From the UHGV virus genome UHGV-1824706: 15,677 bases of DNA. One strand, given 5' to 3'. This document shows positions 3,912-15,677 of this stretch, one piece after another. Both the position numbers and the translations under genes were made by a program. Origin of the DNA: a virus. Below the pieces are notes generated by a model that was not told where the DNA came from, did not search any database, and saw only the letters and a program-made list of their open reading frames with translations. Every line of letters begins with the position of its first letter. The first letter of the stretch is position 1.

Positions 3912-5348
3912 TCAGAATCCTCCTTTCTTCTTGGATTGCGGTTCCTCGCGTTCACGGCGGCGCATTTCAGCAGACTGTTGGTCTGTGTCATAAATAGCGC
4001 CATTTGCCTGAATGCAATACACCGTGCCGGTATTGCCATGACGGTTGAGACGAAGGATTAGTTCGGTTTCACCAGGTGGAACACTGTCATCAAAAGCACC
4101 TTCCCGATGGATCCCCACCCAATAATCGCAATCCTGTTCAATCTGCCCTGTATCGCGCGAGTCACTTGGTAATGGGCGTTTATTGGTTCGGCTTTCCAAT
4201 GCGCGGTTAAGCTGTGTCAGAAGCACAACAACGCAATCAAGCTCTTTGGCAAGGTTCTTCAGTCCTTTGGTGATCATGCCGTATGCAAGGTCGTTGCGAT
4301 CGGCCTTTTCAGCGGTCATTAGCGTCAGGTAATCGACCAGAATCATGCCAACGCATCCTTTTTCTCGTTTGATTCGACGGCTTTCGCTGACGATTTGAGC
4401 CAGAGATAATCCCGGCGTGTCGTCGATGTAAAGCAGGTCGATTTCACTCAAGCGATTGGCTGTCTCGATCGCCCTGTTGAAGTCACCATCGTAATCACCC
4501 TGATAGCCGTCATCAGCGTCATTTGTCGCCGGAAGGTAAAAAATATTCGGGTTCACACCTGACTTCTGCCCTACCAGTTTTTCCAGTATCTGGTCACCTG
4601 GCATTTCAAGGCTGAACATCAGAGCGGGCTTTTTCTCATGCACTGCGCAGTTGATTGCCATCTGGCTGTATAGCGTCGTTTTCCCCATCTTAGGGCGAGC
4701 GCCAATGACAAACAGAGAGCCTTTCACCAGACCTTTCGGTGACAGCATCCTGTCCAGCGATGGGATCCCTGTGCTCATTCCTCGTTGTTCGCCTGACGGG
4801 TCAAATCGCTTCTCAAGGTCGCTAACCCAGTCTTCCATGACCTCACCAAATGAGCGAAGGCCGCGACGCGATCCGGTTTTTGCATGGTCTGTCAGTTGCG
4901 TGAAAATCGACTGAATAGCTTCGTACTTCTGCGTTGCAGTCATTCCGTTGCGGGAATAGAGCAATTCCGTCGCTTCAGTCATGCGGTTGATGGCGTAGCG
5001 TTCCATTGCGGTTTCGCGAACCTGCATTGCATAAGCAACGATGTTTGCTGCGCTTGGCGTGTTCTTTGCGATCTCAGCGATATAAGCAAAACCGCCAACA
5101 GACGCCGTTAACGATTTACGCTCCAGTTCATCGAAAAGCGTCAGGCCATCTACTGGCTTTTGCTCACGGTGCATTCTGGTTATTTCTTCGAAAAGGATTT
5201 TGTGTGGTCGGCTGTAAAATGAATCAGGCTTCAGCATCGCCAGAACTTTCTGGACGCGCTCACTGCTGTCATCATCCAGAAGCAATCCACCAATCACCGC
5301 CTGCTCTGCCTCGATGCTATTTGGCGGCGAATAAAAATTATCGGTCAT
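3912..5348 (-). CDS. DnaB-family replicative DNA helicase (P22 gene 12-like; functionally replaces lambda P)
   Basis: Walker A GARPKMGKTTL, DnaB N-terminal region AEQAVIGGLLLD, Walker B ILVDYLTLM; start chosen at MTDNF (ATG 5346-5348) with SD GAGGGTG. Confidence 0.85.
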   Translation of the reverse strand: MTDNFYSPPNSIEAEQAVIGGLLLDDDSSERVQKVLAMLKPDSFYSRPHKILFEEITRMHREQKPVDGLTLFDELERKSLTASVGGFAYIAEIAKNTPSAANIVAYAMQVRETAMERYAINRMTEATELLYSRNGMTATQKYEAIQSIFTQLTDHAKTGSRRGLRSFGEVMEDWVSDLEKRFDPSGEQRGMSTGIPSLDRMLSPKGLVKGSLFVIGARPKMGKTTLYSQMAINCAVHEKKPALMFSLEMPGDQILEKLVGQKSGVNPNIFYLPATNDADDGYQGDYDGDFNRAIETANRLSEIDLLYIDDTPGLSLAQIVSESRRIKREKGCVGMILVDYLTLMTAEKADRNDLAYGMITKGLKNLAKELDCVVVLLTQLNRALESRTNKRPLPSDSRDTGQIEQDCDYWVGIHREGAFDDSVPPGETELILRLNRHGNTGTVYCIQANGAIYDTDQQSAEMRRREREEPQSKKKGGF

Positions 5349-6228
5349 CGTGTTCACCCTCACGAACTTTCAGGTAGGTATTATCGTTAAGCAGGAAATC
5401 AAATCCCTTTTTGTGCCAGACGGTTCCGCGCTGATGGTTTGGGCGCTCTTCGAACATCCATCGGCAATTTTCGCCTACGTAGTTCAAATAATTTCTCCAG
5501 TCCTGCATCGTGAACCCATGCCCGTCAAGCTGGCGAGTTATCACTCCGGCTTTGCGCCAGAACGTTCGGATCTGGTTTTTACGCTTGTCATTCAGTGCGC
5601 GGATTTTTGGCGCTTCAGGAAGGATTTCGTGGTAAGCATCGACAACATCCTGACAGCTAACGGAAGGTTTTTTCTTGTCAGACTTTTTGTCTGCTGTGGC
5701 ACTCTCTAATACGTCAGTATTAGAGATATTATTTATATTATTGTTTATGGACAACCGTTGGACAACCGTTGGACAATCTCCGCTGAGAGCCGCGCCATTA
5801 CTGGTGTTTGCGTTGGACAACCGTTGGACAACCGTTGGACAATTTTTTGCCTGAAAATCGTCATATTTAACGATTGTAAACAGGCTAAATTTCTTCCCCA
5901 TCGAGCAAATATTAAGCATACCTTTCGACTCAAAAGTCCGTAATAAGCTCCGAACTTTGTTGTCGGGGATGAATGTTTCTCTGACCAGCGACGGGCGTCC
6001 AGTTATCATCTGACCGCGATCAACAGTTATCGGCCCGATATCCGTATTGACGACAGTAGATTCGTGATTTGCCTTGAGGATTAAGTGAAGCCAAAGATGT
6101 ACTGCCTGAGAGTCCTTATAGAGCCTGCTGTCCATAAACTGGCGGTGTATAGAGACATACCCCATACTGGATGCCTCCTGATGTTGTACAGGGTTATGCC
6201 TGTAATCAGCTAACTTAACGACGCCCAT
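5338..6228 (-). CDS. O-like replication initiator (replisome organiser) with internal origin; start either 6228 or internal ATG near 6165
   Basis: Gene immediately upstream of the helicase with an 11-nt overlap; contains iterons and a duplicated NCPTVVQRLS peptide; both candidate starts have AGGAG-type SDs. Confidence 0.7.
   Translation of the reverse strand: MGVVKLADYRHNPVQHQEASSMGYVSIHRQFMDSRLYKDSQAVHLWLHLILKANHESTVVNTDIGPITVDRGQMITGRPSLVRETFIPDNKVRSLLRTFESKGMLNICSMGKKFSLFTIVKYDDFQAKNCPTVVQRLSNANTSNGAALSGDCPTVVQRLSINNNINNISNTDVLESATADKKSDKKKPSVSCQDVVDAYHEILPEAPKIRALNDKRKNQIRTFWRKAGVITRQLDGHGFTMQDWRNYLNYVGENCRWMFEERPNHQRGTVWHKKGFDFLLNDNTYLKVREGEHDDR
5749..5842. repeat. Origin iterons: two identical 28-bp blocks GGACAACCGTTGGACAACCGTTGGACAA (11-bp unit x 2.5) at 5749-5776 and 5815-5842, flanked by AT-rich DNA
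   Basis: Direct repeats read from the sequence; 66-bp spacing keeps the reading frame; AT-rich stretch at 5706-5748 downstream in gene orientation, as in the lambda ori layout. Confidence 0.7.
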
Positions 6229-7833: not shown

Positions 7834-8202
7834 ATGGTTGGAACCGCTATAGCAAGCTTTTTTGGGATGTTGGCAATCTCGACAATTTACGGCTTAGCGC
7901 ATGCTTTTATTGCGAAATCTCTATCAGAAAAAATAAGCCAGGCTTGGGCGCATAGATCAGCTCGTTTCATGATTCTGGTGATCATAGCAATACAAGGGAT
8001 ATCTGCATTTATCCTCTATGGATCAAGCTTATACCTATTGTATCAAGGCGCGACATTTACGCCTTACACCAGTGATTACGGAACTCTATACGATGGTAGT
8101 GAAGACATCACTGTGGCTTGGATCGTCTTTGGTTTATCTATGGCCGTGTCTGTTGTAGCAGACATCATTAAGGTAATTCTCGTCTTAACCTTCGCTGACT
8201 AA
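7834..8202 (+). CDS. Small integral membrane protein (122 aa, about 3-4 predicted TM helices) co-transcribed downstream of cI
   Basis: Hydrophobic segments AIASFFGMLAISTIYGLAHAFIA, FMILVIIAIQGISAFILYGSSLYLLY, VAWIVFGLSMAVSVVADIIKVILVL; SD AAGGGGG 5 nt before the ATG, 18 nt after the cI stop. Confidence 0.6.
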   Translation: MVGTAIASFFGMLAISTIYGLAHAFIAKSLSEKISQAWAHRSARFMILVIIAIQGISAFILYGSSLYLLYQGATFTPYTSDYGTLYDGSEDITVAWIVFGLSMAVSVVADIIKVILVLTFAD

Positions 8203-8287: not shown

Positions 8288-8375
8288 AAATATCCTTTGT
8301 ATTCATTTGCTTATCATTATTTCATCAAAAATAAATACCTCGGGTATTTACACAATAAAATACCTACAGTATTCT
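8288..8375 (+). promoter_or_regulatory. OL/PL: leftward-operon promoter with 17-bp operators
   Basis: Operators AAATACCTCGGGTATTT (8333-8349, near-perfect palindrome) and AAATACCTACAGTATTC (8358-8374), centres 25 bp apart; weaker third site near 8288-8304; -35 TTTACA (8347-8352), 17-nt spacer, -10 TATTCT (8370-8375). Confidence 0.55.
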
Positions 8376-8421
8376 TTAGCCATCAGCAGGACGCTGGTAG
8401 CCAAACGGAACAGATTGGCAG

Positions 8422-8462
8422 GCTCTTTAACATTGATGGGATTGTCCCGCCGAAATGCGGGA
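8422..8462 (+). promoter_or_regulatory. nutL: boxA GCTCTTTAAC plus boxB hairpin UCCCGC-CGAAAU-GCGGGA
   Basis: boxA at 8422-8431; boxB 8445-8462 shares an identical 18-nt core with the nutR boxB. Confidence 0.6.
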
Positions 8463-8775
8463 ACCAAAGAGTAGTTGGCTTTGGGGTGACGTGAAGTGCA
8501 GCTGCACGACGGCAACCGGAAGATAAGCACCCGGCGCGTCACCGCCAAAGTCAATTCCATAGGCGTTATGCAGCCGCCACCATATTCAAGAAAGCTGCAC
8601 AAGAGGTAGGAGGATTTATGTGAATACTTACATTCAGTTGAGAGATTAATTAAATAGAACTGATCGAGCAGAGTCCATAAAGGCTCATAAATGCTCTTCC
8701 ATCCCCGTCTAATTGGCGGGGAAGGAAACAACTTTGTAATAAAAAAATTCCAAAGTTGTTTCATCGGAGGTCAAC

Positions 8776-9075
8776 ATGACAGTAGTCATTACATATCTGG
8801 CTGACGATAACGCCAGAAATCGCCGCAGAGCACGCAGACAGGCTCAACGTGAACAGGCAATGCAAGAGCAGCGACTGGCGCGAAAAATTGCGCTAAAGCT
8901 CTCTGGTTGCGTCAGAGCAGATAAAGCAGCATCACTCGGAAGCCTTCGCTGCAAGAAGGCAGAAGAAGTCGAGCGTAAACAGAATCGTATTTACTACCGC
9001 AAGCCACGCAGTGAAATGGGTGTGACTTGTGTTGGTCGCCAGAAAATGAAATTAGGCAGCAAACCACTTATTTAA
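8776..9075 (+). CDS. N: N-like transcription antiterminator (99 aa) with arginine-rich motif
   Basis: ARM DNARNRRRARRQAQREQ near the N-terminus; C-terminus YYRKPRSEMGVTCVGRQKMKLGSKPLI parallels the lambda N C-terminus; SD GGAGG; downstream of nutL. Confidence 0.8.
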   Translation: MTVVITYLADDNARNRRRARRQAQREQAMQEQRLARKIALKLSGCVRADKAASLGSLRCKKAEEVERKQNRIYYRKPRSEMGVTCVGRQKMKLGSKPLI

Positions 9076-9083
9076 GGTGATAT

Positions 9084-9170
9084 ATGGAAGAAGAATTTGA
9101 AGAGTTCGAAGAGCATCCGCAGGATGTGATGGAACAATACCAGGACTATCCTTATGACTACGACTATTGA
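9084..9170 (+). CDS. orf28-like acidic micro-protein (28 aa); not in the ORF track
   Basis: Hand translation MEEEFEEFEEHPQDVMEQYQDYPYDYDY; SD AAGGTGA; overlaps the start of the ral-like gene, as orf28 does next to ral in lambda. Confidence 0.4.
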   Translation: MEEEFEEFEEHPQDVMEQYQDYPYDYDY

Positions 9171-9354
9171 TAAAAATCAATGGTGTGGACAATTCAAGCG
9201 ATGCAATGGATGCAAGCTGCAATCGGAATGCATGGTTAAGCCTGAAGAAATGTTTCCTGTAATGGAAAATGGGAAATATGTCGATAAATGGGCAATACGA
9301 ACGACGGCAATGATTGCCAGAGAACTTGGTAAACAGAACAACAAGGCTGCCTGA
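9154..9354 (+). CDS. ral: Ral-like restriction-alleviation protein (66 aa, four Cys)
   Basis: MTTTIDKNQWCGQFKRCNGCKLQSEC... matches lambda Ral as I recall it in size, position after N/orf28 and sequence; this is recall, not an alignment. Confidence 0.6.
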   Translation: MTTTIDKNQWCGQFKRCNGCKLQSECMVKPEEMFPVMENGKYVDKWAIRTTAMIARELGKQNNKAA

Positions 9355-9390
9355 TGGTGGCCTTTATTTTCTTATTTGAGAGGAATTAAT

Positions 9391-10014
9391 ATGTCATCAA
9401 TCCGCTTAACTACGAGAATGAAAGAGAAAATCGCTCGTAACGCTTTAATTAAGTCTGGGGTTTTCACTGAACTTGAAGAAGTAACAAAGTTAAAGAACCA
9501 GCTTGCACTTGACGCCAGAGTTATTGCGTTTGGCGGTAAAAAGAAAACTGAGGAAGTGGATCAGTTATCATCCAAGTTGGCAGCTATAAGTGAAGAACTT
9601 GAAAAGATGGGATGTTCACTTTACTCATACGATGTTCGTTCTGCTTCGATTTATCTGACTGTATCTGGAAGAAGGGTTGGCTGGCATTCATACGGAAAAG
9701 GCGGCAACGGTGAAGATATATTGCTCCCCACCCCAGAAAAAGATAAATGCATGTTTGACGCAGAACACGAAATAACAAAAAGGTTTGATGAAATCTGCGC
9801 ATTGCAAAAAAAACTTGAAGCCAAGAAAAAGGATATCGAATCAAATGTATGGGCTGCTTTGAACTCAGTCACAACAGTTAAGCGACTTATTGAAGTTTGG
9901 CCTGAAAGCAAAGAGTTACTACCAAAAGAAGCAGATAAAGCAAGTACAGCACTTCCTGCTTTACGGGTAGAAGATTTGAATAAGATGATTGGACTTCCTT
10001 CCGAGGCCGCATAG
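9391..10014 (+). CDS. Hypothetical protein (207 aa), function unknown; orphan gene in the N-cIII accessory hotspot
   Basis: Start MSSIRLTTRMKEK with SD GAGAGGAA; no motif I can recognise; own terminator immediately downstream. Confidence 0.6.
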   Translation: MSSIRLTTRMKEKIARNALIKSGVFTELEEVTKLKNQLALDARVIAFGGKKKTEEVDQLSSKLAAISEELEKMGCSLYSYDVRSASIYLTVSGRRVGWHSYGKGGNGEDILLPTPEKDKCMFDAEHEITKRFDEICALQKKLEAKKKDIESNVWAALNSVTTVKRLIEVWPESKELLPKEADKASTALPALRVEDLNKMIGLPSEAA

Positions 10015-10030
10015 TCGGCCTTTATTTTTG
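10003..10030 (+). terminator. Intrinsic terminator after the 207-aa gene
   Basis: AGGCCG-catagt-CGGCCT hairpin (the stop codon lies in the loop) followed by TTTATTTTT. Confidence 0.6.
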
Positions 10031-10148
10031 GCATAAACAACAGAATAAACACAGCACTGTGTATTCATTCCAACGAGTGAATACACGGAGCAATGTCGCT
10101 CGTAACTAAACAGGAGCCGACTTGTTCTGATTATTGGAAATCTTCTTT

Positions 10149-10176
10149 GCCCTCCAGTGTGAGGGCCTTTTTATAT
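10149..10176 (+). terminator. Second intrinsic terminator-like hairpin upstream of cIII
   Basis: GCCCTC-cagtgt-GAGGGC followed by CTTTTTATAT. Confidence 0.55.
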
Positions 10177-10238
10177 GCATACCAATAACGCTTCATTCGA
10201 GGCGTTTTCGTTATGCAATCAAACAGAAGGAGCATCCT

Positions 10239-10409
10239 ATGCAACAGTTCGCTATTGCAGGGGCGGCATCGGTTCGCCCTTTCAACCCGATTTTATCGGT
10301 ACAGCATTCACGAAAAAATATTTTAACCGGAGCAGACTTTAAACAACCAAGAATGAAAAGTTTGCTCGAAAAGCTTTGGGATATTTTGAAACAACAAGGC
10401 CGCCCATGA
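10239..10409 (+). CDS. cIII: CIII-like protein (FtsH/HflB inhibitor family), 56 aa
   Basis: MQQFAIAG...SLLEKLWDILKQQGRP parallels lambda CIII (MQYAIAG...LIDILNQPGVP); SD AGGAG; start is internal to the 91-aa track ORF. Confidence 0.65.
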   Translation: MQQFAIAGAASVRPFNPILSVQHSRKNILTGADFKQPRMKSLLEKLWDILKQQGRP

Positions 10410-14326: not shown

Positions 14327-14518
14327 ATGACCGATACCAGCCTGATTCCTGAGAAAGAAGTGATGAACAAGCTCGGTGTTTCATCACGTCAGACAATCTG
14401 GAACTATACCAAACGGCACGGATTTCCGAAGCCAGTCAGAACCCACCCAAAATCATACCTTCGTGAAGCTGTTGAAGGGTGGATTCTTAACGGTGGCGTT
14501 AATCAGAAATGCTCCTGA
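14327..14518 (+). CDS. AlpA-family excisionase / transcriptional regulator (63 aa)
   Basis: MTDTSLIPEKEVMNKLGVSSRQTIWNYTKRHGFPKP is typical of AlpA/Xis-type HTH proteins; adjacent to the integrase. Confidence 0.7.
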   Translation: MTDTSLIPEKEVMNKLGVSSRQTIWNYTKRHGFPKPVRTHPKSYLREAVEGWILNGGVNQKCS

Positions 14519-15677
14519 TGTGCCAGAACAATTTATCAGCGTGAAGCTCATACGCTTTGCGCTGAGCCTCTATCCAATCGTGTTTATTGTATACGGACAT
14601 TATCCCGCCAAGTTCATGACCGAGCATTCGCTCAGTAACATGAGGCTCGACATTCATCTCGGACAGACGTGTAACAAGCGTTCTTCTGAAATCATGTGTT
14701 CGCCAGTAACCCAGATCCATCCCTCCCCTTATTCTATTTACGAATCGGTTGGCTGCAGCGATGCTGATCGGTTTGTTTATGTCTTCTCCAGGGAAAAGAA
14801 CATCATTGTACGTTGTCATGGCCTTTTCGAGAAAAGGCTTAATTTGTTCGAAGATTGGACGGCGGATAACGTTACCCATCTTGCTATGCTCTTTCGGTAC
14901 GGTCCATACGTTGTCCAGCAGGTCAAATTCTGTCTTTGTTGCCAGCCTAAGCTCTGAGAGCCTCGCCCCCCACAGCATAAGCATCTGATGAAGGAGCTTA
15001 TTTGACGTAGACGCACGGCTTCTTTCAATAGCAAGCCAAATCTTAGCCAGTTCGTGATACGACAGTACCCGATCCCCTACCTCAGCGCGGGAGCCGAAGT
15101 CCCTTGGCTGGATGCTCATAATTGCGCAACTATCTATCAACTGACGTCGCATGCACCAACTTATTGCTGATCTTAGTTGACTTAGCACCTGCCTTGCTCG
15201 GCGTGGATTATCTTTTTCTTCTTCGGTAAGCAGGTCAACCCATTGCTTAACCGTTATAGAAGATGCCGGTCGATTAGGGAAGGCGTCATGCATGCGCTTC
15301 ATAACCGTTGATCGGTAAAGTGCCTGGGTCTTTTCTCTGAGAGTTGTAGAGACGTAGTTGTCGAACCAGTAGTCGAGACACTGGGCGACCGTCATGGAGT
15401 TCTCCACCTTCTCTTCAAAATAGGTGCGTGGATCCGTTCCTGAGAAATAGAGCTTTCGCAAGTCAGCAGTGATCTGTCTGGCATCCTTCAAAGACAGGGA
15501 TGGGTATCGACCAAGCCCAAGTCGATTAGGCTTGCCATGCCAGCGATAGCGGTACTGGAACTGGATGACCCCCTTCGGTGAAATTCGTACGCTGAGGCCA
15601 TCGGCATCAGCCACTTCTTGTGGGCCCGAATATGGTTTACCATAAATACTACGCAGTTTTGTGTCGCTTATAGCCAT
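14499..15677 (-). CDS. P4-type tyrosine integrase (392 aa); start codon is the last 3 nt of the window
   Basis: N-terminal arm-binding-type domain (KLRSIYGKPYSGPQE...GLGRYPSLSLKDAR), catalytic HDFRRT box and LGHELGGIMSVYNKHDW with the Tyr nucleophile. Confidence 0.9.
   Translation of the reverse strand: MAISDTKLRSIYGKPYSGPQEVADADGLSVRISPKGVIQFQYRYRWHGKPNRLGLGRYPSLSLKDARQITADLRKLYFSGTDPRTYFEEKVENSMTVAQCLDYWFDNYVSTTLREKTQALYRSTVMKRMHDAFPNRPASSITVKQWVDLLTEEEKDNPRRARQVLSQLRSAISWCMRRQLIDSCAIMSIQPRDFGSRAEVGDRVLSYHELAKIWLAIERSRASTSNKLLHQMLMLWGARLSELRLATKTEFDLLDNVWTVPKEHSKMGNVIRRPIFEQIKPFLEKAMTTYNDVLFPGEDINKPISIAAANRFVNRIRGGMDLGYWRTHDFRRTLVTRLSEMNVEPHVTERMLGHELGGIMSVYNKHDWIEAQRKAYELHADKLFWHIRSISD

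Follow-up and report, generated by a model that had tools for sequence, protein, structure and literature searches.

The window, by which we mean the whole 15,677-nt stretch of the virus genome UHGV-1824706 that was analysed, is the early region of a lambdoid prophage. Its minus strand carries Q, RusA, Ant/Roi, Dam, a DnaB-like helicase, a 296-aa open reading frame (ORF), cII and cro; the plus strand carries cI (S24 peptidase and HTH domains), a 122-aa ORF, N, Ral, the gene under study, a cIII-like ORF and small ORFs, beyond which lie Erf/Rad52, SSB, Abc2 and Ea22-like ORFs. The 296-aa ORF has no Pfam match, and close relatives annotate replication protein O at its place. The 122-aa ORF (7834-8202) lies directly 3' of cI, where lambda carries rex. 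Its match in PHROG is family 6534, of unknown function; it also has a weak match to a membrane-helix domain and may encode a prophage-expressed membrane protein. An integrase with Arm-DNA-bind_3 and Phage_integrase domains closes the right-hand end (14499-15677, minus strand); unlike lambda int, it is encoded on the other strand from the pL operon. Neither Rfam families nor tRNA genes were found on scanning the window.

A conserved 207-codon gene between N/ral and cIII

The gene under study, referred to as nmad5 after its protein family, occupies positions 9391 to 10014 of the plus strand. Its intact ORF runs for 207 codons from the ATG at 9391 to a TAG stop at 10012-10014 and is preceded by the ribosome-binding site GAGAGGA (9378-9384), 6 nt 5' of the start codon. 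Upstream on the same strand are an N-like antiterminator (8776-9075; PHROG 271, E 5e-37, with a weak match to PF25694), which has the lambda-type C-terminus ...GRQKMKLGSKPLI, and ral, encoding the anti-restriction protein Ral (9154-9354; PF11058, E 1.2e-47). The downstream limit of the slot is a plus-strand cIII-like ORF (MQQFAIAG...; 10239-10409), for which a Pfam search gave no match and whose homologue is named CIII by RefSeq in HK542 and HK140. The original prediction had described a 207-aa gene with a good ribosome-binding site, placed between N/ral and cIII and ending in a hairpin and T-run whose loop contains the stop codon, and all of these elements are present. It had also taken a single protein to fill the interval. 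The 207-aa gene is there, but it is followed by a non-coding block of about 220 nt (10015-10238), in which there are a 31-codon ORF and a further pair of terminator-like hairpins (10149-10166 and 10187-10206). This block gave no Rfam match; it is conserved in the prophage of E. coli UM146 up to about 10165 and diverges beyond.

A very acidic mini-ORF of 28 codons (MEEEFEEFEEHPQDVMEQYQDYPYDYDY, 9084-9170) lies between N and ral and overlaps the start of ral. It has a strong ribosome-binding site and no Pfam match, and the site together with the first codons (GGTGATATATGGAAGAA) is the same as that of a 140-aa ORF in the UM146 prophage.

We compared nmad5 with 80 close relatives from viral contigs. 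The ORF is intact in 78 of them and the median pN/pS, each relative being compared with the window, is 0.26. This gene is real and under purifying selection. Amino acid polymorphism peaks at residues 60-150 and reaches its minimum in the C-terminal third of the protein.

The protein belongs to the Nmad5 family

Although the protein had been described as an orphan with no recognisable motif, it matches the Pfam family PF18757 (Nmad5) over its full length (E 7.3e-71; residues 4-203 on profile positions 1-206 of 206), scoring 238.9 bits against a curated cut-off of 27, and it has thousands of relatives and a RefSeq name. It also matches PHROG 1965 (function unknown) with an E-value of 1e-82. Nmad5 is the only significant Pfam match and no described anti-defence family was matched there; a search of NCBIfam gave no match and a search of PADLOC gave 0 families at E <= 1. 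Near-identical proteins carry the NCBI/RefSeq label ‘Nmad5 family putative nucleotide modification protein’. Iyer et al. are said to have named the family in 2013 from gene neighbourhoods in phages with hypermodified thymidine. The gene is already catalogued, and its family is known, large and biochemically uncharacterised.

At the DNA level, nmad5 is 96-97% identical to genes of phages mEp235, HK542 and HK244 and of Stx1 phages, and one IMG/VR contig encodes a 100% identical protein. Full-length nmad5 is found in 209 of 5,426 complete E. coli genomes (~4%). A profile search of 1.84 billion representatives returned 2,287 clusters at 50% identity (696 at E <= 1e-10), which consist almost entirely of stand-alone proteins some 200 aa long; a second search found 257 relatives, and the 120 of these that were listed show no domain fusion. 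Hosts of these phages include Enterobacteria, Vibrio, Pseudomonas, Bordetella and others. The distribution is patchy and covers both temperate and strictly lytic phages. Every residue conserved across the family is found in the window protein (R-L-T near the N-terminus, G-G after helix 2, G93, T..L...WPE..EL.P, LP and LN...GLP). Sharing length, single-domain layout, motifs and predicted fold with PF18757/PHROG 1965, and showing no structural difference from it, the window gene is almost certainly a standard member of the family.

Probable transcription from pL and a shared terminator

A candidate pL region on the plus strand (8334-8465) comprises a promoter-like site, TTTACA-17-TATTCT (8347-8375), set between the operator-like inverted repeats ATACCTCGGGTAT and ATACCTACAGTAT (8334-8375), and a nutL-like site with a boxA-like GCTCTTTAAC at about 8423 and a boxB-like hairpin at about 8446-8462, both called by eye against the known consensus. 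A 138-aa minus-strand ORF (8348-8764) overlaps the pL leader/nutL region; its PHROG match spans only 20 residues and it is probably not a gene. Before the ribosome-binding site of N, two hairpins within 8697-8762, one of them a 16-bp hairpin at 8725-8762, recall the RNase III-processed N leader of lambda.

The promoter scan gave no further promoter-like site between 8375 and 10412, and none that would give nmad5 the promoter of an autonomous promoter-gene-terminator unit (moron). The 36-nt gap between ral and nmad5 is occupied by the ribosome-binding site and by a terminator-like hairpin with a T-run (9343-9374, plus strand), the same hairpin that follows ral in UM146, so that no space is left for a promoter. 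Because this terminator abuts the ribosome-binding site and no promoter-like site was found, nmad5 would have no separate promoter and would depend entirely on polymerase that started at pL and was modified by N. With ral and its terminator placed before it, expression of nmad5 in this prophage should need antitermination by N.

At the other end of the gene lies an intrinsic terminator (10003-10030, plus strand). Its hairpin (GAGGCCG-CATAGT-CGGCCTT, 10003-10022) has a 7-bp G+C-rich stem and a loop that includes the TAG stop codon; TATTTTT comes next. The predicted fold energy is -11 kcal/mol and conservation in relatives is near complete; the stem variants that do occur mostly weaken the stem, without compensatory changes. 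The terminator had been taken as the gene's own. It appears instead to be a joint of the shared prophage backbone: the same 37-bp segment is found in about 240 further E. coli genomes without nmad5, in prophages with other cargo or none. It probably acts like lambda tL1.

nmad5 as a mosaic cassette

Similarity to the window begins about 20 nt 5' of the ATG in 68 of the 80 relatives, which sets the left edge of the shared segment at CTTATTTGAGAGGAATTAAT (9371-9390, plus strand), and it ends either just after the terminator (~10040) or near 10160. As these boundaries show, nmad5 moves as a discrete mosaic cassette made up of ribosome-binding site, ORF and terminator. The left edge contains, besides GAGAGGA, the triplets CTT ATT TGA, the last codons of a lambda-type N gene. 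In most relatives ...AGCAAACCA stands directly 5' of the 20-nt edge, and the two jointly encode the end of N, ...SKPLI stop; by ORF calls, an N-type ORF ends 11 nt 5' of nmad5 in 48 of the 80. The adjacency of N and nmad5 in relatives, together with the N codons left at the window junction, indicates that the usual order is N, nmad5, terminator, and that the window keeps a scar of it. We infer that this order would put nmad5 on the immediate-early transcript.

By contrast with N, ral is found 5' of nmad5 in only ~12 of the 80 nmad5 contigs. Conversely, among 80 viral contigs with a 98-100% identical Ral, nmad5 is adjacent or downstream in only one. Judged by these counts ral is an incidental neighbour, and its adjacency, which the original prediction had read as a clue to function, carries little weight. 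The idea of an accessory hotspot between N and cIII is correct, since the content of the slot is swapped elsewhere. In the UM146 prophage (positions 2074-2537 of the locus), a different ORF of 140 aa lies between the ral terminator and the shared terminator AGGCCGCATAGTCGGCCTTTATTTTT; it has hydrophobic segments, is membrane-like and has no Pfam match. In another prophage, a 108-aa ORF and a P22 gp17-type exclusion gene come between nmad5, which follows N, and cIII. Ral, P22 gp17 and SieB have the same operon position as nmad5, presumably with the same regulation, and are interchangeable in the slot; none has a sequence or fold relationship to Nmad5, and SieB has membrane segments whereas Nmad5 has none.

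In Stx2a phages, an IS3-family element interrupts nmad5 near codon 34 (LC616058.1, 830-1730), which makes the gene expendable there. The remnant is a 152-aa ORF, and tblastn gave two places per record in the Stx2a phage rows listed. We take the insertion to be IS629-like.

Predicted structure and conserved residues

An AlphaFold2 model built with 24 homologues is confident (pLDDT 85.8, pTM 0.71). The predicted fold is mostly a helical bundle with a small beta-hairpin: three long N-terminal helices (residues 8-72), the beta-hairpin (86-100), a long helix (127-158), short helices (163-182), a linker of low confidence (184-192) and a short terminal helix (193-199). When the model was compared with BFVD by Foldseek, 10 matches at E <= 1e-3 were obtained (best E 1.2e-12, TM 0.76). 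Those with a UniProt description are Nmad5-labelled or uncharacterised phage proteins, and several others are undescribed; the predicted fold is thus common to other phage members of the family. No known DNA-binding fold, enzyme fold or solved structural relative was detected by structure comparison. A search for solved structures with the family profile returned coiled-coil noise only (best E 0.23). The homology and structure checks that had been suggested at the outset have given a confident family, PF18757, and no match to a characterised protein of known function.

Conservation was computed over 141 representatives and 54 diverse members. Residues invariant across the family are mostly G, P, W and L, to which R5, R43, E172, E175 and N197 are added. 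They concentrate in the C-terminal 45 residues (T162, L166, W170-P171-E172, E175-L176, P178, L188-P189, L196-N197 and G201-L202-P203), forming a conserved module that reads K-[KR]-L-[IV]-x-x-W-P-E-x-x-E-L-x-P, a flexible linker, and L-N-x-x-I-G-L-P. Just before L166 and W170-P171-E172, the basic pair K164-R165 is nearly invariant in the enterobacterial alignment. A C-terminal HhH motif and a clamp-binding motif were considered for this region, and on inspection the sequence fits neither consensus. The protein has no hydrophobic segments. Its pI of 8.3 makes it mildly basic, and some Arg and Lys residues are conserved; DNA mimics, by contrast, are acidic. No evident catalytic site, enzyme-like fold or enzyme motif is apparent in the model, although the invariant R5, R43, E172, E175 and N197 could be catalytic and a novel enzyme fold is conceivable.

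Gene contexts of distant relatives

Distant relatives of nmad5 are found in diverse surroundings. In Pollock-type N4-like phages, the gene lies between thymidylate synthase and a group comprising a RecE-like exonuclease, primase, Sak4 and SSB; in an unrelated contig nmad5 and the beginning of a DUF3799 RecE-like exonuclease gene overlap, with AAA_24 next; another contig has it among DNA methylase, dUTPase and ParB-like genes, and in Bas95 it sits among small early genes. In YuA it is surrounded by a kinase, gp14 and dUMP hydroxymethylase, upstream of DNA polymerase, and this YuA/M6-like context of thymidine hypermodification gave the family its name (PMC9476957). The YuA protein, gp15, and its M6-like counterparts have a C-terminal module homologous to that of the window protein (45% identity over residues 121-207), whereas the kinase, hydroxymethylase and DNA polymerase around gp15 are absent from the window. 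In Dhillonvirus, one metagenomic phage and two Vibrio phages, nmad5 stands alone within modules for the head or tail, frequently in antisense orientation. Entire genera of lytic phages (Dhillonvirus, Yuavirus) conserve the gene.

Across 30 non-redundant loci, repressors (5), RecE-like exonucleases (5), N (4), family A polymerases (4) and helicases (4) lead the identifiable neighbours in frequency. Annotated families that recur at a distance of up to two genes from nmad5 are DUF2800 (3), HTH_3 (3), PDDEXK_1 (3), AAA_24 (2), Peptidase_S24 (2), DUF3799 (2) and N_peptide (2); most other neighbours at this distance have no Pfam match. A scan of genome contigs with the diverse Nmad5 alignment returned only 5 loci.

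The Dhillonvirus homologue and escape from Tmn

In our search of the literature for Nmad5, PF18757 and the phage names, a functional study was found only in a paper on the defence protein Tmn, a KAP NTPase (PMC11846954). Mutants escaping Tmn carried nmad5 K216E in phage SM_A8 and K296E in SM_S22; reverting the change restored sensitivity to Tmn and introducing it gave escape. The gene could be deleted from Dhillonvirus, although deletion did not give escape, and it could not be cloned, apparently because it is toxic (PMC11846954). The authors call Nmad5 a DNA modification enzyme (PMC11846954), a label that rests only on the family name.

The Dhillonvirus proteins (SM_S22 CDS6, SM_A8 and SECphi18 gp24) also match PF18757 over their full length. 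They are 254 aa long, against 207 aa for the window protein, carry some 50 additional residues inserted into the beta region, and are 32% identical to it over the C-terminal 99 residues and 26% overall. Their gene lies antisense between head genes of a lytic phage, whereas that of the window belongs to a pL operon. The lysine changed in the escape mutants (K216/K296) corresponds in the alignment to R165 of the window protein, which is close to the WPE motif. The two numbers differ because SM_S22 nmad5 (positions 5005-6009 of the locus) is annotated as 334 aa, with a start 80 codons upstream of the SM_A8/SECphi18 start; this annotation overlaps the scaffold gene, and the start is probably over-extended. 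Another SM_S22 protein, CDS0035, whether or not it is the anti-Tmn ‘ORF35’ of the paper, is unrelated to Nmad5 (hhalign probability 0.1%).

Discussion

Anti-defence or host takeover, the role proposed in the original prediction, is still the most plausible class for Nmad5, on indirect evidence. As to mechanistic class, a question apart from identity, we lean towards a non-enzymatic early host-takeover or counter-defence factor, a reading that we would place somewhat short of probable. According to this proposal, Nmad5 would be a dispensable, non-catalytic early protein that uses its conserved C-terminal module as a binding surface for a conserved cellular component, or for an immune sensor linked to DNA metabolism. 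In most relatives, where the gene comes directly after N and before the first terminator, its synthesis would coincide with that of N, right at the onset of infection or induction. The host-directed class is suggested by the toxicity on cloning, by dispensability and by the gain-of-function character of the charge reversal that escapes Tmn, which works even though deletion does not. An accessory role directed at the host is likewise suggested by the patchy spread, by a slot shared in exchange with Ral and gp17-type genes, by the IS disruption in Stx2a phages and by moron-like positions, some of them antisense within head or tail modules. That Nmad5 binds rather than catalyses is consistent with the helical model, the invariant G, P, W and L residues of the C-terminal 45 residues, the low-confidence linker and the lack of fusions.

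Against a host-directed role, neither the PADLOC models nor the known anti-defence families in Pfam match Nmad5, and the Tmn result bears on a homologue that is 26% identical, with another insertion and another genomic position. Conservation throughout lytic genera and the replication and recombination contexts would suit a function in the DNA metabolism of the phage itself just as well. Nmad5 would then be an accessory component of replication or recombination acting on phage DNA intermediates instead of host targets, for example a partner of an exonuclease/annealase module or a factor handling DNA ends or single-stranded DNA. We regard this as unlikely, although it is the main rival. It would account for the Pollock locus and for the contig in which the gene overlaps the DUF3799 exonuclease ahead of AAA_24; nmad5 stands directly before a RecE-like exonuclease twice and is often inside replication or recombination modules, and PD-(D/E)XK nucleases (the DUF2800 and DUF3799 families above) are the commonest annotated neighbours within two genes in the 30 loci. 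In the window itself, Erf, SSB and Abc2 follow 650 nt downstream, and the mildly basic protein with its conserved Arg and Lys residues would suit such a role. Most nmad5 loci, however, have no neighbour of this sort, and in Dhillonvirus and some Vibrio phages the gene is alone and antisense within structural modules. Moreover, it co-occurs with modules of the Erf, the RecT and the Red type, Dhillonvirus can do without it (PMC11846954), it is IS-disrupted in Stx2a phages, and no known DNA-binding fold was detected in the protein.

The family name itself invites another explanation, in which Nmad5 contributes to the modification of nucleotides or DNA bases, perhaps as a subunit or specificity factor of such a pathway. 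Beyond the hypermodified-thymidine neighbourhoods from which the name reportedly came, this is consistent with the YuA/M6-like locus and its kinase, gp14 and dUMP hydroxymethylase (PMC9476957) and with the dUTPase, DNA methylase or thymidylate synthase near nmad5 in some loci. The genes that would bear out the name are absent from the window phage: the 15.7-kb window contains no aGPT-Pplase, nucleotide kinase or hydroxymethylase, as is also the case for mEp235, and its only modification gene is the Dam methylase, 6 kb away in the nin region. Because these partner genes are absent here, a base-modification role is poorly supported; lambdoid, N4-like and Dhillonvirus contexts have no hypermodification cassette either, and neither an enzyme fold nor a fusion to an enzyme domain was found. 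We consider such a role improbable. More improbable still is a gene for lysogenic conversion or superinfection exclusion that, like sieB or rex, would be active in the prophage and shield the lysogen. The membrane-like ORF and the gp17-type exclusion gene that hold the slot elsewhere would fit it, as would the terminator that follows nmad5. But with no promoter-like site upstream, where a terminator abuts the ribosome-binding site, and with a family common in strictly lytic phages, expression in the lysogen is unlikely; in addition, Nmad5 has no hydrophobic segments and matches none of the PADLOC models.

Returning to the preferred reading, that of an early host-takeover or counter-defence factor, a more specific version can be formulated, which is speculative and which we hold to be doubtful as a whole. 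Nmad5 may be a misnamed, widespread immediate-early phage protein that engages host immunity. Its C-terminal module, around R165 and WPE, would be recognised by the membrane KAP NTPase Tmn or by related sensors, single substitutions would toggle the protein between a sensed and a blocking form, and the lambdoid copy would be made together with N before antitermination.

The interest of nmad5 lies in the size of its family, its position directly after N in most close lambdoid relatives sampled, its doubtful name and its single link to Tmn. For genome annotation there is a lesson in the label ‘nucleotide modification protein’, which is unsupported in the lambdoid context. Since phages mEp235 and HK542, which plate on K-12, carry near-identical copies of nmad5, the lambdoid version offers a convenient handle on the function of Nmad5 and on escape from Tmn.
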